64,000 nt of DNA from Patescibacteria group bacterium (GTDB lineage: Bacteria > Patescibacteriota > UBA1384 > DATEAH01). The position numbers and the translations under genes were made by a program. The stretch lies in the NCBI GenBank assembly GCA_035288465.1, contig DATEAH010000007.1:66090-130089 (forward strand). The letters are read 5' to 3'. Positions 3,213-50,014 of the stretch are shown in pieces. Position 1 is the first letter of the stretch. The number at the start of each line of letters is the position of its first letter. The notes under the pieces were generated by a model. The model did not search any database. It was not told where the DNA came from and was given only the letters and a program-made list of their open reading frames with translations.

Positions 3213-5048
3213 TTATAATAGAGAAACCGGATCAACCTCAATTTTGATATCTTTAGGTAAAACCTCTGGGACTGGCATAATTTTAGTACCTTTGAGGATT
3301 ATTTGCCAACAGAATTTTTCAGCTTTTTTGAATTTGAAACAAGGTGATGATCCCAAAATTTTAAGCGAAGAATCAGAATTTTGGATTTTTTCCACCAAAG
3401 ACATGGCCTTTTCTTCTAAGTGTTTTAGATTTGAATCAGTAAGGATTAGTCTGATTAATTTGCCAAATGGCGGGTAGCCGGATTTTTTTCGAGCTAATAA
3501 TTCTTGATGATAAAAAAGCTGATCTGAGTCGCGCAAAATTGCCTGATAAATTAAATGTTGCGGATAATGTGTCTGGACTAAAAATTCGTTTTTGGCATAA
3601 AGTTTCGCAATTTTTAGAAGCTGATAGGTTTTTTCAGCGGATTTAAAATCCGGCAAGTTTAAAGTTAAGTCTGGCTCAACTGCGACCACTAAATTAGCAG
3701 GTTGAAATATTTTAGAAAAGATTTGTTGTGTACCAATAATTAAATCGTATGACAGATTTTGTAAATTTATTTTTTCAAAATGATCGCTTTCTAAACGTAA
3801 AATTTTGGCTTCAGGTATTATTTTTTGAACTTCAGTGGCAACTTTTTCCGTACCGCCACCCAAAAAGCGTAAATTTGATCCTAAACAATTTGGGCATTGA
3901 TTAGTAATTTGTTGAAAATATTGGCAGTGATGGCAAATTAAAGCTTGGCTAACTTGACCATATTGGATTCGAAAAGTGAGGACTTTTTGGCATTTGGGGC
4001 AGCGAAAAATATGCTGGCAGTCGCGGCATAGTACCACTGAGGCTGAGCCCTTTTTATTAATAAATAAGATTGAAGTTTGGTGATTTCGAAAATTTTCAAT
4101 TATTTTTTGTTGAACAAGATCTGAGAGTAAGTTAAGGTTTTTATTTAAATATTCCAGATTCATATCAATTAGTTTGGTTTTAGGGGAAAAGGGGAGTTGG
4201 GGCTTGAGCCAGCTGATTTTTCGTTTTTTAATTTCCAGAAAATAATCTAAATTTAAACTTGGGGAATAAAAAAATAAATTGGCTTTTTGCAGTTGGCATA
4301 ATTGTTCAGCCACTCGCCTGGTGTCATATCTGGGAGAGCGGTCTTGTTTATAGGTTTGATTTTCTGCCCCATCAATAATAATTTGGCCCAAATTAGCCAA
4401 GGGCGTAAAAACCGCAATTTGTGAGCCGACCACGACTTTTGCCTTTTGCGATAAGATTTTTAAATAATTTTGCCATTTTTCGGAATTTGGAAGCTGTGAA
4501 TGATATAAAATTGTTTCGTTTTGAAGACGCTTTGGTAAATATTGATAAAATAATTTCGCGTTTTCAACGTCGCCAAATAACACAATTGATTGTTTATTTT
4601 TGGTTTGTGTTTTTTCAATTAGTTCTATAAATTTAATTAATTTAGTTTTAAAAATTAAGTCTTTATCAGTCAGCTTTTGGGGCTTTCTGAGGGTGGAAAT
4701 TTTGGCGCGAGGCTTTAAAACTGGTTTTGGCAATAGGGCAAAAATGACTTGGGAAAGAGGAACGTGGTAGTAATTTGAAATCCAAAGTGATAATTTTTTT
4801 AATTGAGTTGGAAATTCAAAATCCGAAACCACAATTTTCACAATGCTTTTAAGTTTTAAATTTTGAATTTTGAAAGATCTTTTTCTTTTTATATCAAAAA
4901 CCAAACCTAAAATCTTACGATTGCCAAAAGGAATTTTTACCAACGAACCTATTTTAACTTCTGGCAATAATGAGGCTGGAATTTTATATGTGAACAAGGT
5001 TTGTTTAAAATCAGTTTTAATATTTGGAACGATTTGGGCATACTGCAT
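3213..5048 (-). CDS. priA: primosomal protein N' (PriA)-like, with degenerate ATPase motifs
   Basis: 611 aa. PriA Cys-rich zinc region CRDCQHIFRCPKCQ..CHHCQY..CPNC is intact. The region aligning to Walker A reads GDVENAKL (GVTGSGKT in E. coli PriA) and the region aligning to motif II reads DGAENQTYKQ (DEEHDSSYKQ). About 30 aa after Walker A are missing. Confidence 0.75.
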   Translation of the reverse strand: MQYAQIVPNIKTDFKQTLFTYKIPASLLPEVKIGSLVKIPFGNRKILGLVFDIKRKRSFKIQNLKLKSIVKIVVSDFEFPTQLKKLSLWISNYYHVPLSQVIFALLPKPVLKPRAKISTLRKPQKLTDKDLIFKTKLIKFIELIEKTQTKNKQSIVLFGDVENAKLFYQYLPKRLQNETILYHSQLPNSEKWQNYLKILSQKAKVVVGSQIAVFTPLANLGQIIIDGAENQTYKQDRSPRYDTRRVAEQLCQLQKANLFFYSPSLNLDYFLEIKKRKISWLKPQLPFSPKTKLIDMNLEYLNKNLNLLSDLVQQKIIENFRNHQTSILFINKKGSASVVLCRDCQHIFRCPKCQKVLTFRIQYGQVSQALICHHCQYFQQITNQCPNCLGSNLRFLGGGTEKVATEVQKIIPEAKILRLESDHFEKINLQNLSYDLIIGTQQIFSKIFQPANLVVAVEPDLTLNLPDFKSAEKTYQLLKIAKLYAKNEFLVQTHYPQHLIYQAILRDSDQLFYHQELLARKKSGYPPFGKLIRLILTDSNLKHLEEKAMSLVEKIQNSDSSLKILGSSPCFKFKKAEKFCWQIILKGTKIMPVPEVLPKDIKIEVDPVSLL

Positions 5049-5065
5049 AAAAAATCCTTCGGATT

Positions 5066-5166
5066 TTTTTAAATCCTAAATTCAAATATCGAAATCCTAA
5101 ACAATATCAAAATTCAAATTTTCAAAATTGGAACTTATTTGAGATTTGTAATTTTGAATTTATAAT
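5066..5166. repeat. AT-rich intergenic inverted-repeat element, copy A of a five-copy family
   Basis: Begins aaatcctaaattcaaatatcgaaatcctaaacaa and ends with an inverted tttgaatttataattt-type arm. Shares the aaatcctaaat..cgaaa..ctaaaca motif with copies at 19.2, 20.3, 32.7 and 47.3 kb. Confidence 0.5.
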
Positions 5167-5688
5167 TTATTCCTCATGTCTTTTGACAGTGAATTTATAC
5201 AAAAATACGGGTTCACCTTCAATAATACCGGCTTTTTGGCTGGCAATGGCGATTTGTTGATTGGCGGAATCTACCCCGTCTAAATCTGGTAATAATAAAC
5301 CAGAACGACCATCAGCAGTTTTGACAATCACGCCATATTTTTTAGGATTTAGCTCACGATCGGGATTTTGAACTGGTTTTGGTGAGGATAAGACATCAAC
5401 TGAAATTTCGATACTTTTTAGTTCAGACAAAGTTACCGGTTCAAATCTGGGGTCGCTGGTGGCCGCAGCCACCGCGTTTTTGATAATTTCTTCGGCTAAA
5501 TTTGGTTGGGTGGCTAAGAAAGTGCCGATGCAACCTCGCAAATCATCATTTGATAAATGCAAACTGATAAAAGTCCCGGCGCGTTTGGTTAAGTTTTTTG
5601 GTAATGATTTTGGGGAATTTAAAAATTTGCCAGTTTTCAAATAATTATAAATTGATTTTCGAGCCAAGTTTGTATAAATATTTTTCAT
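5167..5688 (-). CDS. AMMECR1 domain protein (AmmeMemoRadiSam system protein A)
   Basis: 173 aa. Contains the conserved AMMECR1 motif LRGCIGT. Confidence 0.85.
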   Translation of the reverse strand: MKNIYTNLARKSIYNYLKTGKFLNSPKSLPKNLTKRAGTFISLHLSNDDLRGCIGTFLATQPNLAEEIIKNAVAAATSDPRFEPVTLSELKSIEISVDVLSSPKPVQNPDRELNPKKYGVIVKTADGRSGLLLPDLDGVDSANQQIAIASQKAGIIEGEPVFLYKFTVKRHEE

Positions 5689-5693
5689 ATAAT

Positions 5694-6509
5694 TTATTTA
5701 ATTTTAAATTCAACAACGGCATAACCGACGCCAAAGGGACATTCGTAGGAGAGTTTTTTAACTTGATATTTTAAATGGCTAATGGCACCCAATAAGATGA
5801 GGATTGAGCGATATCCACATTCACCAGCTTCATCTATAAATTCTTCGTCAAAATTTAAAATCTTAGTGACTTCATTTTTTTCAAGCGCTTTAATGAGCTG
5901 CTGGTCAAATTTTTTACCGAGGGTTGAATAACCGGCTGGAGATTGGGGTAAAAGCCGGTGGGACAAATCACCAGAGGCGATAATGGCAACCCTTTTGTTT
6001 TTGAGCTTTTCTAAAACATCGGCTAAGGCTTCACCAAAAGCAAAATGTGAATTTACATTTAAGTAAGAATAAGCGATTGGGACAACTTTTACATTTGTGA
6101 GGTGTTTGCAGATAAAATACAAAGGCACTAAACTGCCGTGGTCTAATTCAAAAGTGTTGTCCGGATTATCATTGGTATATAGCAGGGTTTCAATTCCTTC
6201 GGCATCAGCTTTGGCGTTAATTTCTTTGACAAGTTGCAGATCGTTTTCAAATTTGAATTTAATTTCCGGGTGGCCAAATTGAGAAAAATCGCCTTTTAAT
6301 TTTGGCATGCCACAAATATTCATCCGGTCAGGATAAACTAAACCATGTGGGGAAATTAAAATAATCGTTTCCGGATCGGTTTTATCCAAGTCTTGGCTAA
6401 ATTTTTCCATGGCGGCAATGGATTTTTGAACTTTTGTTGAGTCTGTTCCGCCAATTTCAGGAACCATAATCGGTGGATGTGGCGTTATCGCTGCGAAAAT
6501 TATTGACAT
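5694..6509 (-). CDS. MEMO1-family protein (AmmeMemoRadiSam system protein B)
   Basis: 271 aa. Class III extradiol-dioxygenase-like / Memo fold with His-rich sites PHPP..SPHG. Adjacent to the AMMECR1 gene. Confidence 0.8.
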   Translation of the reverse strand: MSIIFAAITPHPPIMVPEIGGTDSTKVQKSIAAMEKFSQDLDKTDPETIILISPHGLVYPDRMNICGMPKLKGDFSQFGHPEIKFKFENDLQLVKEINAKADAEGIETLLYTNDNPDNTFELDHGSLVPLYFICKHLTNVKVVPIAYSYLNVNSHFAFGEALADVLEKLKNKRVAIIASGDLSHRLLPQSPAGYSTLGKKFDQQLIKALEKNEVTKILNFDEEFIDEAGECGYRSILILLGAISHLKYQVKKLSYECPFGVGYAVVEFKIK

Positions 6510-6719
6510 AATTTTCTCCGCTTAAATTTAAAATTAAAAAGTCAAAAATTAAAATTGATTATTCGAACCTATTATAGCACAATTTTGATTTTTAAGCTTG
6601 ACTTCCAGAGAGAGAGTTAAATGGAAAATAGAGAACAATAAACAACTAACAATAATCCGCCGACGAAGCGGAAATGACCCACCTTCGCTAAAGCTATGGT
6701 GGGCGGGGAGGAAAATTAT

Positions 6720-7488
6720 GACATCAGAAACTGAAGGTTATCAACCAGGTGAAGAAGAAGTTCAAGCAGCCGAAGAAATGATGGATGATAAACAAAAGAG
6801 AGAGAGTATGGGAAGAGAACGGGACATGTTAGACGAAAAAAGGCTTGAGGAAGGAGAAAAAATTGGCGATCCAACTGAAATGTTAGTTGACCATTTCCAA
6901 ACCACGGCAGACAAAATGAAAGTAGAAGGGTTAGATAGTGATGCAAGAAGTGTTGAAAAATTAATAAGTATTTTTCAAAATTTTTCCAACAACGCAAAAA
7001 AAGAATACGAAAAGAAAAAATCCTTAGGACTTAATCCTGTTTGGCTGCGGGAGGATAAACGTTTAGCTATATTCTATAGCGGAAGAGGAATAGAGTTAGT
7101 AAATGTGCACAGAGGTGTTGATGTTTATGATGAATTGACAACGAAACGACAAAGCCCCGAACCTAAAACAACCATAGCTGGACCACTTGGTCGCTTATCT
7201 GAAAAGGGTTGGAAAATTTTTTACGAATCAACAGGTATTGATGAGAATTTAATGGAAATAAATAAAGAAGCATTTGATAAAAATTACAAATCAGCTAAAG
7301 ATAAACACAATTTTAGTGTGGAAACAGAAGAATCTACAAATATTCCTGGTGTAAGATTAAGAGCTCGATCTAATGGTGCTAATTTTAACACAGAATACTA
7401 CATTTCTTATAGTGAAGATTCGGTTCGTATATTATTTGATAATACTTTTATGAACCGAATGCGAAATAGAAGCGAAAGAGAAAAATAA
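6720..7488 (+). CDS. hypothetical acidic protein, 256 aa from an RBS-supported ATG (the ORF track extends to 6598)
   Basis: RBS gggaggaaaa precedes the ATG at 6720. No recognisable domain. GC content is visibly higher than the flanks. Inserted inside the AmmeMemoRadiSam gene triad. Confidence 0.5.
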
Positions 7489-7550
7489 TTATTGTACGAG
7501 CTAGTTTATTAACTCTTGATAATTTACTAAATAAAATAATGAAGGTTTAT

Positions 7551-7603
7551 ACATTTCCCAAATGAACATATTTTAAGCCGGATTTTTTACCAATTTGGGC
7601 GGC
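7551..7603. repeat. direct repeat copy 1: a duplicated 3' end of the radical-SAM gene
   Basis: 53 nt, with ~46/53 identity to 8008..8060. On the minus strand it encodes ..AAQIGKKSGLKYVHLGNV plus a stop, so it matches the C-terminus of the radical-SAM protein through synonymous changes. Confidence 0.7.
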
Positions 7604-7671
7604 TTTTTGACAAAGGATTTTTGGATGATATAATGAAAATCAGAACATTGAAAAGTTTTAAAGGGAGTAAA

Positions 7672-8001
7672 ATGGCCTTAGAAAAAAAAGATTTTGAACA
7701 AATTGAAAAAATTGTCAATAAAACCGAATCTCGGTTAGAGAAGAAAATTGGTGCGACGGAAACCCATCTGGAAAAGAAAATTACTTCCACAGAAACTGGT
7801 CTGGAAGAAAAAATTGGTTCTATAAAAACTCATCTGGAAGAAAAAATTGAAGATTCTGAAAATAGAATTATTTCTGTTTTGAGCCGGGAAATCACTGATT
7901 TAGCGGAAATTAACCGAGCCGTAATTGAGAGAGTGGATCAAATTGCTGAATTAGAAAAACGTATTATCCACATTGAACATAAAATCGGAATCACCACTTG
8001 A
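7672..8001 (+). CDS. small coiled-coil protein with ~11-aa (33-nt) tandem repeats
   Basis: RBS aagggag precedes the ATG at 7672. Repeats ETHLEKKI / ETGLEEKI / KTHLEEKI. Bracketed by the 53-nt direct repeats. Confidence 0.45.
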   Translation: MALEKKDFEQIEKIVNKTESRLEKKIGATETHLEKKITSTETGLEEKIGSIKTHLEEKIEDSENRIISVLSREITDLAEINRAVIERVDQIAELEKRIIHIEHKIGITT

Positions 8002-8003
8002 GA

Positions 8004-8891
8004 TTAAACATTTCCCAAATGAACATATTTTAGACCAGATTTTTTGCCGATTTGGCTGGCGAGCTCTAAAGTTTTAATTGGTGTGATGGTGCTATCCATC
8101 ATTTTGAAAGCCGGGAAGAAGCGAGAGATGTGCCAGGGAATATTTTTATCAATTTTTGCTAAGAACTCGGCAATTTGGGTGAGTTCTTTTTTTGAATTAT
8201 TAACACCCGGAATTATTAATGTTGTCACCTCTAAATGAATTTTTTTGGTGTGAACTGTCTTAATATTTTCTAAAACTGGGGCGAGTTTTGCGCCGCAGTA
8301 TTTTTGATAGGTTTCGTCTTTGAAAGCCTTAAGGTCGATATTGATCGCGTCTAAGAATGGCGTGATGAGATTTAAAGTTTCTTTTGAAAAATAACCATTT
8401 GAGACCCAGGTATTTTTTAGACCTTTCTTGTGGGCGATTTTCATCGTATCTAAAGCAAGCTCTAAAAAGATAGTCGGTTCAGTATAAGTATAGGAAATAG
8501 ACGGACAATTATTTTTGATAGCTTCAGCGACAATTTCTGCTGGCGTCATTTTTTGAAAAGGAATTTCGTCGATTGGTAAATTATATCCTGAAGCTTTTGA
8601 AGCTTGGGAAATATCTGCATTTTGGCACCAAGCGCAACGGAAATTACATCCAACCGTAGCGATAGAATAAGTCAAAGTTTTCGGCATAAAATGAAAGAGT
8701 GGTTTTTTCTCAATCGGGTCAATGTGGGCAGCAATTATTTTTCCGTAGGCTAAAAAATATAATTTACCTTGCTGATTTTCGCGCACACCACAAATTCCCC
8801 GATTCCCGGGTAAAATTTGACATTGATGAGAACAAGTTAGGCATTGGACTTTTTGCCCGCCCAATTTTTGATATAAATAAGATTCTTTCAT
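8004..8891 (-). CDS. AmmeMemoRadiSam system radical SAM enzyme
   Basis: 295 aa. CNFRCAWCQN (CxxxCxxC) radical-SAM cluster motif. PFL-activase-like. Partner of the AMMECR1 and Memo genes. Confidence 0.85.
   Translation of the reverse strand: MKESYLYQKLGGQKVQCLTCSHQCQILPGNRGICGVRENQQGKLYFLAYGKIIAAHIDPIEKKPLFHFMPKTLTYSIATVGCNFRCAWCQNADISQASKASGYNLPIDEIPFQKMTPAEIVAEAIKNNCPSISYTYTEPTIFLELALDTMKIAHKKGLKNTWVSNGYFSKETLNLITPFLDAINIDLKAFKDETYQKYCGAKLAPVLENIKTVHTKKIHLEVTTLIIPGVNNSKKELTQIAEFLAKIDKNIPWHISRFFPAFKMMDSTITPIKTLELASQIGKKSGLKYVHLGNV
8008..8060. repeat. direct repeat copy 2: the authentic 3' end of the radical-SAM gene
   Basis: Encodes ASQIGKKSGLKYVHLGNV* on the minus strand. Pairs with copy 1 at 7551..7603. 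Confidence 0.7.
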
Positions 8892-8917
8892 TTTTAATTT
8901 TAATTAGAACCAAGAGA

Positions 8918-9529
8918 TTATTTGGAGGCCAAAAACTTCATTTTCGGCAACAAAACATTATATTTTGGTCGTAAAATTCGGTGAAAGTTACGAAAAGAAA
9001 TCATGGGTTTGCCAATAATTAATTTTTCATCAAGTGCTCCAAACGATCTGGAATCCAGGCTATTGGCACGATTGTCGCCCATCACAAAAACTTGATTTTG
9101 CCCTAAAGTAACTTTGAAATTAGTGGAGGTGGACGCAGAATAAATATCTGACGGTAAATAAGTTTCGCCTAAAATAATACCTTGCGGATGTTCATTATTA
9201 ACAATGGTGATTTTGCCATTTTCAATTTGGAGCGTTTCGCCGGGCATGCCAATAATTCTTTTTATAAAATCGAGTTGCTGATTTTGTGGATATTTAAAAA
9301 TAACTACATCACCGCGATGATATTTTTTTAGTTTAGGGGTAACCTTTTCAACTAATAAATATTCTTTATCATAATAATTTGGTTCCATACTTGGACCATC
9401 CACAATAAAGGGCTGAAAGACGAAAATTCTAAAAAGTAAAGCCAAAAGAAATAACAATATCACACCCTTGAAAAGGTCGAAAATAAAATAAGCGATTTTT
9501 TTCAGATTCGCAATTGAATCATTTGACAT
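8918..9529 (-). CDS. lepB: signal peptidase I
   Basis: S26 motifs GPSMEP (Ser), KRIIGMPGE (Lys) and GDNRANSLDSRSFG. N-terminal TM anchor. Confidence 0.85.
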   Translation of the reverse strand: MSNDSIANLKKIAYFIFDLFKGVILLFLLALLFRIFVFQPFIVDGPSMEPNYYDKEYLLVEKVTPKLKKYHRGDVVIFKYPQNQQLDFIKRIIGMPGETLQIENGKITIVNNEHPQGIILGETYLPSDIYSASTSTNFKVTLGQNQVFVMGDNRANSLDSRSFGALDEKLIIGKPMISFRNFHRILRPKYNVLLPKMKFLASK

Positions 9530-9562
9530 TTTTTCCCTAATTTTATTTTTATTTAAATCTCT

Positions 9563-9636
9563 TGGCCACTGACCGATTCGAACGGTCGACCTTCGCGATG
9601 TGAACGCGACGCTCTAACCAGCTGAGCTAAGTGACC
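9563..9636 (-). tRNA. tRNA-Val (anticodon CAC)
   Basis: Hand-folded cloverleaf. Acceptor GGTCACT/AGTGGCC, anticodon loop TTCACAT, T-loop TTCGAAT. CCA is not encoded. Confidence 0.85.
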
Positions 9637-41490: not shown

Positions 41491-41844
41491 ATGAGGCGAA
41501 CTGCTAGGACAAAGAGAAAGTTTGGTGATCCGAATTACCGTTTTTTATACTTTGACAAAAGTCGGGAATGTCGAGAAGCGAAAAGATTTATCGAAGCATT
41601 GGGCGTCGCTTATCATCTGCTTAATATCGCTGGCTATAAATCAGATCAGAAAGTACCATTTGTAATGGATTCGCGAGGCAACTCATGGCAAGGCTTAGAA
41701 GCGATAAAGACATATTGGGTTGCTTGGGCGTTGTCCGGCGATATTTCTACTGATGAAGAACAAATTATTCGGCAAAGAGCTAATGAACTTTTGCGGATTG
41801 ATCGAATCGCTGAAAACTATTTTAGCACCATCCTGGAAATTTAA
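41491..41844 (+). CDS. small hypothetical protein, paralog 1 of a tandem pair
   Basis: 117 aa. Shares GDPNYRFLYFD / GNPNYRTLHRD and (A/M)LGVAY / LGIAYE blocks with the next gene. Possible thioredoxin-like fold without CxxC (KVPFV cis-Pro-like segment). Confidence 0.45.
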   Translation: MRRTARTKRKFGDPNYRFLYFDKSRECREAKRFIEALGVAYHLLNIAGYKSDQKVPFVMDSRGNSWQGLEAIKTYWVAWALSGDISTDEEQIIRQRANELLRIDRIAENYFSTILEI

Positions 41845-41873: not shown

Positions 41874-42215
41874 ATGACAACAGCGGCAAAAAGGGCAGTA
41901 AGGATTGGAAACCCTAATTATCGTACTTTGCATAGAGACGGCAGTGAGGAAAGCCGCAAAACAGAAGAATTTATGGACGATTTGGGAATAGCCTATGAAA
42001 TTTGCGAATGCACTGGCAATTGTCCTTATGAAACACTGCCGTGTATTAGTTCAAAATTTGCATCCGGCGTCTATTGCGGTTTTCATACTATTATCACCAA
42101 TTGGCAGTCTTGGACTGAAGGCGATGATATTTCTGACGAAGATAAACAAATCTTGGCAGAAAATGCCCGTTTCTTAATGGCTACCTGCCAGTTCTTAGCA
42201 ACCATAACATCTTGA
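41874..42215 (+). CDS. small hypothetical protein, paralog 2 of a tandem pair
   Basis: 113 aa. Homologous to the upstream ORF. Both have a C-terminal acidic block (GDISTDEEQI / DDISDEDKQI). Confidence 0.45.
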   Translation: MTTAAKRAVRIGNPNYRTLHRDGSEESRKTEEFMDDLGIAYEICECTGNCPYETLPCISSKFASGVYCGFHTIITNWQSWTEGDDISDEDKQILAENARFLMATCQFLATITS

Positions 42216-49111: not shown

Positions 49112-50014
49112 ATGAAATTGCAACCCATACGTTCTCAAAAAGATTTAAATGATATTTTTGATATTAACGATCAAAAAATTATTAGTCTTATTAAGCTAAA
49201 AAATAAATATAAAAAGCGATCTATCCCGAAAAAATCTGGTGGAATAAGGGTAATAACGGAGCCCGCACCCGAATTGAAATCTTTCCAAAAAAAGCTGGGT
49301 AGCTATATTTTTCGTATGAAAAAATTAAAATTCGCTTATGGTGGCGTGAAGAATAAATGCCGAGAAGATGTCGCTAAACTTCACAGATGTAATTATTTTA
49401 TTCTTAAATGTGATATTAAAAATTGTTTCCCTTCGATTAGAAAAAAAGTAGTGGTTAAAGAATTGTTGAACTTTGGTTTTACATATAAATACGCTAAATT
49501 GTTCACAGAAATAATAACTTTTGAAGGATCTCTTCCTCAGGGTGCACCTTCAAGTCCGGGCATGGCGAATTTAATATTAGATAAGATTGATAATCAAATT
49601 ATAACTGTACTACCGTTTGGCTGTAAATATTCCCGATGGATTGATGACATTATGATTTCATTTCCGAAAAAAAATCAACTAAAAATAATTAAAGACATAT
49701 CGAAAAAAATTGAGAATATAATTCATTCTAATGGTTTAAATCTGAAAGATGGGGTTTCTATTATCCTCAAGGAGCATTGCAGCGATTTACTTGGGCAATC
49801 AATATCTAAGAAGATTAATATTCCTAAAAAATGGTATAAAATTTTACGGAGTCAAGTTTATAGACTTAAAAGGGGATTTTATAAAGGTAAAGAACAAGAA
49901 AAAATAATAGCTTTAATCAAAGGTAAAATGGTATTATTAAAAAGTGTTACCGTCCATCACAAAAAACAAACTAGATATTATACGCTTAAGAAAATACTTG
50001 ATAAAATTATGTGA
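49112..50014 (+). CDS. reverse transcriptase, compact retron-type (no maturase or endonuclease domains)
   Basis: 300 aa. RT motif 1-2 KKSGGIRVITEP, motif A LKCDIKNCFPSI (D101), motif B' LPQGAPSSPGMANLIL, motif C RWIDDIMIS (W-x-DD variant). Retron-like thumb segment LLGQSISKKINIPKKWYKILRSQVY. Ends with TGA. Confidence 0.8.
   Translation: MKLQPIRSQKDLNDIFDINDQKIISLIKLKNKYKKRSIPKKSGGIRVITEPAPELKSFQKKLGSYIFRMKKLKFAYGGVKNKCREDVAKLHRCNYFILKCDIKNCFPSIRKKVVVKELLNFGFTYKYAKLFTEIITFEGSLPQGAPSSPGMANLILDKIDNQIITVLPFGCKYSRWIDDIMISFPKKNQLKIIKDISKKIENIIHSNGLNLKDGVSIILKEHCSDLLGQSISKKINIPKKWYKILRSQVYRLKRGFYKGKEQEKIIALIKGKMVLLKSVTVHHKKQTRYYTLKKILDKIM

Follow-up and report, generated by a model that had tools for sequence, protein, structure and literature searches.

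How could a bacterial gene come to have two diverged copies of its own 3' end, one working and one dead, with another gene enclosed between them? This question is raised by a locus in the genome of a CPR bacterium (Patescibacteria). The CPR bacteria are not culturable, and to our knowledge their recombination mechanisms are known by inference only. The window, which is the whole 64-kb stretch of DNA that was analysed, contains a radical-SAM gene whose final codons occur a second time beyond a small coiled-coil gene. The observation is real and was confirmed: the region 5001-9600 is 100% identical in about 20 independently assembled contigs (ENA, JGI and Logan), so the structure of the locus is not an assembly artefact.

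The repeat pair and the genes around it

The direct repeat is 57 nt long and comprises copy 1 (7547-7603) and copy 2 (8004-8060), both read on the minus strand, with a start-to-start spacing of 457 nt and an identity of 49/57 (86%). The original prediction, which had described direct repeats of about 46/53 identity, was essentially right on this point. It had also taken copy 2 for the real 3' end of the radical-SAM gene, and copy 2 indeed holds the working final 18 codons and the stop of this gene, reading ASQIGKKSGLKYVHLGNV before the stop. Copy 1 reads AAQIGKKSGLKYVHLGNV before its stop; it is an untranslated relic of the radical-SAM 3' end, because the frame upstream of it is rich in stops and has no start codon. 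The stop codon is included in both copies, which makes the repeat 57 nt long instead of 53. The similarity had been said to cease upstream, and its limits are indeed abrupt: one is the junction 7603/7604, the other the stop codon.

When the window was searched by tblastn for the radical-SAM C-terminus, copy 1 (E = 3e-8) was the only strong relic of this kind; no third relic was found adjoining the Memo gene (6505-6725), where the alignment score lay inside the shuffle range. Exactly two copies of the repeat were counted in the 64 kb, even with three mismatches allowed, and there are two copies at every locus of this organism and none at other loci. A dispersed intergenic repeat (REP or MITE-like), the generic repeat against which the original prediction had been set, was rejected on this count. 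An RNA reading was also rejected: no Rfam family and no tRNA were found in 6400-8100, and folding either copy on either strand gave z-scores between -0.3 and +1.0.

The radical-SAM gene (8004-8891, minus strand) is intact and encodes the 295-aa radical-SAM enzyme of the AmmeMemoRadiSam system, matching Pfam Radical_SAM and TIGR04337 (279.3 bits against a cutoff of 220). The alignment spans model positions 4-286 of 349; the protein is without about the last 60 positions of TIGR04337, like the roughly 120 CPR homologues of about 294 aa each, nearly all of which have the C-terminus GLKY[IV]HLGN[VI] before the stop. The partner genes are a Memo/LigB-type gene (5694-6509, minus strand; TIGR04336, 41 bits, cutoff 26) and AMMECR1 (5167-5688, minus strand; TIGR04335, 132 bits, cutoff 99), which here stand 1.5 kb apart from the radical-SAM gene. 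In the relative L035/L036 the radical-SAM gene is followed directly by Memo and then by PriA, with no insert, which marks the 1.5 kb here as an insertion. Such an event would have broken up what is normally a tight operon of three genes (radical-SAM, Memo and AMMECR1).

Two genes together part the radical-SAM gene from Memo and AMMECR1. One is an ORFan (6718-7488, plus strand; 256 aa) with the Shine-Dalgarno sequence GGGGAGG. It matched only itself among 5.8 billion proteins, and gave weak partial matches and no informative homologues among 1.84 billion representatives. With 0.230 it has the lowest GC3 among the 58 non-overlapping window ORFs of at least 100 aa; the ORFan and the small gene account for two of the three lowest GC3 values in this set.

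The other gene belongs to the inserted unit proper, a self-contained 400 nt between the copies (7604-8003, plus strand), which begins at the sharp junction 7603/7604, is absent from L035/L036, and consists of a promoter, a 5' leader, the small gene and a 2-nt spacer. The promoter is a predicted one of the sigma-70 type, called purely from its consensus match (7607-7634, plus strand; TTGACA-N16-TATAAT with a TG extension). It agrees with the consensus at 12/12 positions, is the best promoter-like site in 6400-9000, and starts 4 nt past the end of the relic. The small gene (7672-8001, plus strand), with the Shine-Dalgarno sequence AAAGGGAG at 7660-7667 on the same strand, encodes a 109-aa single-helix protein of hendecad (11-residue) repeats; the original prediction had correctly placed a hendecad coiled-coil gene inside the bracket. 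The repeats are encoded by at least three 33-nt tandem units (7723-7848, plus strand), and the assembly L029 has one unit fewer, giving a 98-aa protein. AlphaFold2 predicted one helix over residues 5-105 (mean pLDDT 94.6). The 45 homologues make up a family conserved in CPR bacteria, whose members differ in repeat number, and a metagenome scan with the family profile found at least five loci. No curated family was matched; Pfam, PHROGs and PDB gave just sub-threshold coiled-coil matches.

Divergence between the two copies

Copy 1 had been predicted to encode the same C-terminal peptide as copy 2, with all differences synonymous or conservative, and this is essentially right: the two peptides are almost the same. 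Six of the eight nucleotide differences are synonymous; five concern third codon positions, and the sixth is the first-base change between the Leu codons TTA and CTA. The remaining two share one codon (GCC Ala versus AGC Ser). There is neither a frameshift nor a stop inside the relic.

The simplest mechanical source of a direct repeat flanking an insertion would be a duplication in situ, either a long target-site duplication or a segmental one, arising at the insertion of the small gene and followed by neutral drift of the dead copy. The unusual Ser of KKSGL, present in both copies where most relatives have KKAGL, is also in keeping with such a duplication. In simulations of this history, however, at most one amino-acid difference was obtained with P = 0.002-0.008, a statistic that is based on only eight nucleotide differences. 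The outgroup comparison points the same way: it suggests that the copy 1 branch acquired one or more synonymous changes (GGT to GGC) but none that alters an amino acid, and the relic has kept its frame. Duplication in situ is therefore very improbable. The segmental duplication that the original prediction had offered as an alternative is thus disfavoured; whereas its remark that synonymous-only divergence is odd for an untranslated copy was to the point, the pattern being real and unlikely for a decaying duplicate.

Given these simulations, the two copies most likely diverged as the ends of two functional alleles until recently. The distance between them (eight differences) is about that of either copy to the orthologues of L033 and L034 (8-11 differences). 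A pattern dominated by synonymous changes would be expected of one resident and one imported allele; gene conversion, at which the original prediction had hinted, would not be needed, since the ends of two functional alleles give the same pattern. As to which copy was there before, copy 1 has AAQ, ATT and GTA-TAA in common with the closest relative L033, which hints that it may be the resident end; at several of the differing positions it is nearer to L033 than copy 2 is.

Two selected ends could also have stood side by side in one genome, as an old tandem pair of radical-SAM genes, most of the downstream one having been recently deleted or overwritten by the small gene, so that its final 57 nt were left. 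Both the mostly synonymous divergence and the direct orientation would be accounted for in this way. Tandem radical-SAM genes, however, were found in no relative (the gene adjoins Memo in L035/L036, and L033 and L034 have a single copy), and one radical-SAM gene per system was seen across the CPR homologues. A separate insertion of the small gene with an exact junction at the promoter would still be required. A tandem paralogue is accordingly held to be improbable.

Proposed origin of the relic

The locus is read here as the scar of a 3'-end displacement, produced by recombination with DNA of a related lineage, and the probability of this reading is put at roughly 0.55. The donor would be a related Patescibacteria lineage, contributing a radical-SAM gene end and, convergent with it, a promoter-driven small coiled-coil gene. 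Its DNA would have recombined with the resident chromosome through one homologous join within the radical-SAM gene and one illegitimate join at 7603/7604, 57 nt short of the resident gene's end. Copy 2, as the imported end, would thereby complete the present working gene; the final 18 codons and stop of the resident gene (copy 1) would have been shifted 457 nt downstream and lost their translation. We infer the direction, that is, which copy is the resident one, as well as a mechanism of the type of homology-facilitated illegitimate recombination (HFIR) and the uptake of foreign DNA as the source. What is directly observed, and speaks for this reading, is the repeat with a divergence as under coding constraint, the sharp junction, the promoter-plus-gene cargo, the insert-free order in L035/L036, the low GC3 of the small gene and the ORFan, and the lack of any integrase or transposase family among the 58 window ORFs searched. 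As a displacement scar, the locus is of an ordinary kind, unusually clean, and an instance of a known process: the HFIR mechanism and the orphaned 3' regions left behind have been described in Vibrio type VI secretion (T6SS) and in Rhs toxin loci (PMC5361080). The model requires that chance placed the illegitimate joint no more than 57 nt from the gene end.

No genome was found in which a radical-SAM gene faces the small gene convergently, as it would in the donor, nor was a near-identical strain free of the insert; every assembly of this organism shows 100% identity over 5001-9600. A sliding-window comparison with L033, L034 and L035 gave no clear mosaic breakpoint inside the radical-SAM gene, at a protein identity of just 83% to the nearest relative. 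The contig of this relative (L033) stops 25 nt past the stop codon. A scan of the GTDB species representatives with the radical-SAM protein gave relatives of at most 58% identity and no insert-free sister genome.

The main rival is a decayed mini-element flanked by att sites, i.e. a CIME-like remnant, or a miniature, of a site-specific integrative element whose integrase was lost or never present. Its att site would have carried about 57 nt of the radical-SAM end, a tyrosine or serine recombinase would have integrated it, and attL (copy 1), the small gene and attR (copy 2) would be what remains. The direct repeats lie exactly at the 3' end of a gene that is kept intact by a replacement end borne on the element, and elements with attL and attR but without integration genes are a recognised class (PMC5704250). 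The small gene, which could be cargo, also stands in displaced-end brackets at recX, in L030 and L037. The copies further share an identical 25-nt core (7551-7575 and 8008-8032; codons K Y V H L G N), with two matches in the window against none expected in 100 shuffles. This core could be a crossover region; conservation of amino acids and codons explains it equally well, the codons being near-invariant in L033 and L034.

Against this element stands the search for integrase and transposase families in Pfam, which found none among the 58 window ORFs of 100 aa or more, none in the 400-nt bracket or about 6 kb to either side, and no integrase in the L030 bracket. The radical-SAM loci of 15 other genomes have neither relic nor insert. 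The small gene is present at 10 of the 10 places listed from 22 contigs encoding the identical radical-SAM protein, and no empty-site variant occurs among these places. Elsewhere, homology between copies of the small gene begins at the ATG and ceases 10 nt beyond the stop; no element ends are shared among other genomes, and no short flanking repeats were found in other loci. The family is absent from a viral scan of IMG/VR. The att-flanked element is thus considered unlikely. Of the site-specific integration that the original prediction had called typical, the footprint of integration or recombination at a gene 3' end stands; the strict site-specific sense is not supported, as no integrase family was detected in the bracket or among the 58 ORFs, and no empty site or recurrent element was seen at this site in other genomes.

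An independent parallel, which favours the displacement reading, is the bracket in L030 (GCA_964433905.1), whose repeat pair emerged only from a scan of the whole locus: there a diversity-generating retroelement (DGR) and a homologue of the small gene lie between the real end of recX and a relic that has diverged from it. The relic (70 nt, 73% identical) has seven consecutive synonymous codon changes and resembles native RecX ends from other lineages. The same process as in the displacement scar may move DGR cassettes in CPR genomes. The occurrence of one small-gene family in displaced-end brackets of two genomes hints at more than random uptake.

In other CPR genomes homologues of the small gene lie beside or within DGRs, and in L043/L044 the gene lies between the variable repeat (VR) and the template repeat (TR). 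These placements bear on two further readings. In one, the repeat pair here would itself be the VR and TR of a DGR that diversifies the radical-SAM C-terminus, and the window does carry a reverse transcriptase gene (49112-50014). That gene, however, is 41 kb off and has neither an Avd gene nor a repeat pair in its vicinity, and the peptide that the repeat encodes is conserved, not diversified. The mismatch spectrum decides the matter: coding-strand adenines are involved in 1/8 mismatches here versus 23/26 in the genuine DGR of L030, which served as control, and the VR/TR reading was ruled out on this basis.

In the other, the small hendecad gene might be a promoter-plus-gene mini-cassette that relocates recurrently in Patescibacteria without a recombinase of its own. 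It would come to lie between the 3' end of a gene and a second, diverged version of this end, moving perhaps via small circular intermediates or by host recombination at short direct repeats. This would fit the position of the gene between the radical-SAM ends, between the recX ends of L030 and between VR and TR in L043/L044, and also its order relative to the DGR core, which is circularly permuted between L030 and L043/L037. Such a cassette is doubtful; if it were true, the scar would be the signature of a new mobile unit lacking an integrase, not a one-off accident.

Under the favoured reading of 3'-end displacement, the locus would record, in compact and datable form, a horizontal exchange between related CPR bacteria. 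It would indicate that gene gain in reduced CPR genomes can replace a gene end and leave a relic, here in a 64-kb window with no integrase detected.

Comparison with known systems

The locus resembles the VR/TR pairs of DGRs in that a gene 3' end is accompanied by a nearby non-coding direct copy, and small-gene homologues lie between VR and TR in L043/L044; whereas the mismatches here are not adenine-specific, the peptide is conserved, and no reverse transcriptase or Avd gene is adjacent. For annotation, such relics might be useful markers of insertion boundaries, which should not be confused with att sites or DGR template repeats.

Genomic islands, ICEs and prophages at gene 3' ends are also flanked by direct repeats of the target end and leave the target gene intact through an element-borne replacement end; CIMEs share the bracket without an integrase (PMC5704250). 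Unlike these, the bracket here is just 400 nt, with no integrase family in the 64 kb, no signs of excision in the assemblies and no recurrence at the radical-SAM site elsewhere. Its repeats are diverged throughout, save for the 25-nt stretch that is explained by codon conservation.

The arrays of Rhs orphans and of T6SS effector-immunity genes in V. cholerae (PMC5361080) are similar in several respects. An intact gene is followed by an orphaned 3' fragment in the same orientation, new DNA lies between the two with no dedicated recombinase, and a homologous anchor on one side with an illegitimate joint on the other has been proposed. The displaced end differs: in those arrays it is a variable toxin domain, whereas here an enzyme of housekeeping type is concerned and the displaced part is its highly conserved tail of 18 residues, so that nothing would be gained at the protein level. 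The cargo here is a single antisense small coiled-coil gene, and the host is a CPR bacterium.

Divergence of the direct repeat at the radical-SAM 3' end

A direct repeat of 57 nt (49/57 identical, 457 nt from start to start) was found at 7547-7603 (copy 1) and 8004-8060 (copy 2). Read on the minus strand, the radical-SAM ORF 8004-8891 ends with copy 2 (...ELASQIGKKSGLKYVHLGNV), and copy 1 reads ...KAAQIGKKSGLKYVHLGNV. The frame upstream of copy 1 contains stops and has no start codon, and therefore copy 1, the relic, lies outside any ORF. The similarity has sharp limits, one at 7603/7604 and the other at the stop codon. The direct repeat of the original prediction is thus confirmed, and is slightly longer since the stop codon is included. 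The copies share an identical core of 25 nt, ACATTTCCCAAATGAACATATTTTA, which has exactly two matches in the 64-kb window with 3 mismatches allowed (0 in shuffled sequence) and two in every locus of the source organism, and was not found in the fetched loci of other organisms; a generic dispersed repeat, the opposing case named in the prediction, was ruled out by these counts. In a tblastn search of the window with the last 35 residues of each ORF that encodes 80 aa or more, the radical-SAM relic was the sole strong match (E = 3e-8).

More than 20 independently assembled contigs (ENA, JGI, Logan) encode the same radical-SAM protein, and more than 20 the same small protein from between the copies; their gene order is constant, and the DNA of 5001-9600 is 100% identical between assemblies, which rules out an assembly artefact. 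A structured RNA was also rejected: no tRNA or Rfam feature was found in 6400-8100, and the folding of both copies on both strands was no better than shuffled controls. A reading of the repeat pair as part of a diversity-generating retroelement (DGR) was rejected as well.

The 8 differences between the copies comprise 6 synonymous changes and 2 changes within a single codon (GCC Ala vs AGC Ser), so the synonymous divergence earlier described as odd is borne out. After duplication in place and drift of the untranslated copy, most differences are expected to change the peptide. Evolution was simulated conditional on 8 differences under several transition and AT-bias settings; the functional copy took synonymous changes, with nonsynonymous ones at rate 0.1, whereas the dead copy took all changes. 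At most one amino-acid difference was obtained in only 0.2-0.8% of these in-place-duplication runs. The distance between the copies is similar to that of each from the orthologs of other species: copy 1 and copy 2 show 8 and 10 differences from the nearest radical-SAM relative (L033), and 11 and 8 from another ortholog (L034). The simplest reading of these sequences is that the copies would have evolved as functional radical-SAM gene ends in separate lineages and been joined recently. This history could explain the synonymous-only divergence, and the gene conversion hinted at previously is not needed. Copy 1 has AAQ, ATT and the terminal GTA-TAA in common with L033, the closest relative, a weak hint that copy 2 may have been imported, the relic being the resident end.

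An insertion in the AmmeMemoRadiSam operon

The radical-SAM gene (8004-8891, minus strand) encodes an AmmeMemoRadiSam enzyme (279 bits with TIGR04337, cutoff 220), and profile searches identified its partner genes for a Memo/LigB-type protein (5694-6509) and AMMECR1 (5167-5688), with priA next. The protein ends at TIGR04337 model position 286 of 349. A stop at this point is usual in the lineage: the ~120 homologs from Patescibacteria have ~294 aa, and almost all of them terminate in ...IGKKAGLKY[IV]HLGN[VI]*. Roughly the last 60 model positions are missing from the window's enzyme and these homologs (P0046-P0165); longer family members, such as P0160, retain them and end with ...GKCGKCGEDLNIRC.

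In a relative (L035/L036, 71% protein identity), Memo comes directly after the radical-SAM gene, and then CTP synthase, a fragment of AMMECR1 and PriA. The 1.5 kb of 6510-8003 have thus been inserted into an operon that is normally tight. This insert contains two plus-strand genes, which have the lowest (0.230, ORFan) and third-lowest (0.264, small gene) GC3 of the 58 window ORFs (mean 0.317, standard deviation 0.038). The ORFan (6718-7488, 256 aa) is located between the relic and Memo and has a good Shine-Dalgarno sequence. Among 5.8 billion proteins no homolog but itself was found, and a search of 1.84 billion representatives gave weak partial matches only. Its leader (6640-6700) has two GC-rich hairpins, TCCGCCGACGAAGCGGA and CCCACC...GGTGGG, in an AT-rich spacer. 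The first scored as terminator-like on the minus strand; it could stop read-through from the radical-SAM gene or the antisense side of the small gene before Memo.

As judged from sequence, the copies enclose a complete expression unit of 400 nt (7604-8003). A putative plus-strand promoter (7607-7634; 12/12 consensus with a TG extension) begins 4 nt past the relic end and is the top promoter-like site within 6400-9000. The Shine-Dalgarno sequence AAAGGGAG (7660-7667, plus strand) precedes the small gene (7672-8001, plus strand, 109 aa); 2 nt separate its stop codon from that of the radical-SAM gene on the opposite strand.

The small-gene family and a parallel at recX

A total of 45 members of the small-protein family were retrieved; all come from metagenomes or MAGs, and one carries the label Berkelbacteria. 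The N-terminus (MALEKKDLxQIEKIV) and the C-terminal half (ENRIISVLSREITDLAEINRAVIxRVDKIxELEKRIIRIEHKIGI) are conserved, and the middle consists of 11-residue repeats in variable number. AlphaFold2 predicted one helix for residues 5-105 (mean pLDDT 94.6); searches of Pfam, NCBIfam, PHROGs and PDB gave sub-threshold coiled-coil matches only. One assembly (ERZ27254791; L029, 5001-5297) encodes a 98-aa version with exactly one 33-nt hendecad unit fewer (window repeats 7723-7848); this reflects either collapse during assembly or a polymorphic repeat number in a population that is clonal in other respects.

An independent parallel comes from another CPR genome: the locus L030 (GCA_964433905.1, CAYSSM010000002.1) encodes a small protein 64% identical to that of the window. 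Its real recX end (844-929, DFQKQAAFLQRRGFPTSIIYRILNHNRD) and a recX relic (5325-5403, NFQKQTAFLQRRGFSMSVIYHILKSK) form a 70-nt repeat of 73% identity, in which seven codons in a row differ synonymously. The pair encloses a complete DGR, with its PcfJ-like target, template repeat (TR), bAvd and reverse transcriptase, and, after the reverse transcriptase, the small gene; adenines account for 23/26 mismatches between TR and variable repeat (VR), and no integrase was found within the bracket. The relic resembles native RecX ends of other lineages (e.g. GFSMNVIFKVL in L039), and by this resemblance it was apparently the working recX end that was imported, as may also hold for copy 2 at the radical-SAM locus. 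The DGR core of L030 (3136-5316) is collinear with L043 (104-1901) and L037 (1-2121) at ~75% nucleotide identity. The L037/L043/L044 lineage has the same relic boundary after the reverse transcriptase; its small gene lies between VR and spacer-TR, an order circularly permuted relative to L030. In L037 (2066-2160) the relic has gained an ATG just downstream of an extended -10 box (TGTGCTATAAT), and a mini-ORF of 30 aa (MKDFQKQAAFLQRRGFSMGVIYKILKNYSN*) could thus be expressed from it. L038 and L039 have the order RecA, RecX, small gene (PPDK next in L038), with no recX relic.

The same C-terminal scan of ~198 kb of other fetched loci revealed only the L030 recX relic and the DGR VR/TR pair. Both non-DGR relics found (2/2) enclose a member of the small-gene family, which is suggestive, although the sample was picked by looking for that gene. 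That the small gene itself is a recurrently relocating integrase-less cassette seems improbable. The homology between the L030 and L043 small genes extends from the ATG to 10 nt beyond the stop only, and no conserved ends shared by the copies of other genomes were found.

Origin of the scar

No integrase or transposase family was detected in the bracket, in its ~6-kb flanks or, across the window, in the 58 non-overlapping ORFs that encode 100 aa or more. Core genes make up the remaining window (fmt, def, priA, lepB, lspA, secG, alaS, mreBCD, a penicillin-binding protein, greA, lysS, serS, secA, ftsEX, ligA and gatCA), with the sole exception of a stand-alone reverse transcriptase. This plus-strand gene (49112-50014, 300 aa; Pfam RVT_1 2.5e-19, phrog_2825 2e-45) has the second-lowest GC3 in the window, and no Avd gene or VR/TR-like repeat was found near it (44-54 kb). 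Two adjacent plus-strand ORFs (41491-41844 and 41874-42215; 117 and 113 aa) are mutual paralogs with 37-42% identical N-termini (E about 2e-5) and no Pfam match.

Of the competing explanations the strongest, though less likely than recombination, is an att-flanked element whose integrase has been lost (CIME class, PMC5704250). Recombination with DNA of a related lineage is favoured, because integrase or transposase, RNA feature and conserved small-gene ends were all absent from these searches. Such recombination would use a homologous anchor within the radical-SAM gene on one side and an illegitimate joint at 7603/7604 on the other. A recent scar of 3'-end displacement is the best reading of the locus, and it would mark the horizontal gain of a small coiled-coil gene with a putative strong promoter; the recX scar of L030 suggests that DGR cassettes of CPR bacteria may spread through the same end-replacement process. 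A homologous anchor combined with an illegitimate joint is the mechanism proposed for the orphaned 3' regions of Rhs and Vibrio T6SS loci (PMC5361080). The locus is a fresh instance of this already known type of event, in the unusual setting of a CPR bacterium and an AmmeMemoRadiSam operon, and with an unusually clean signature of synonymous divergence.
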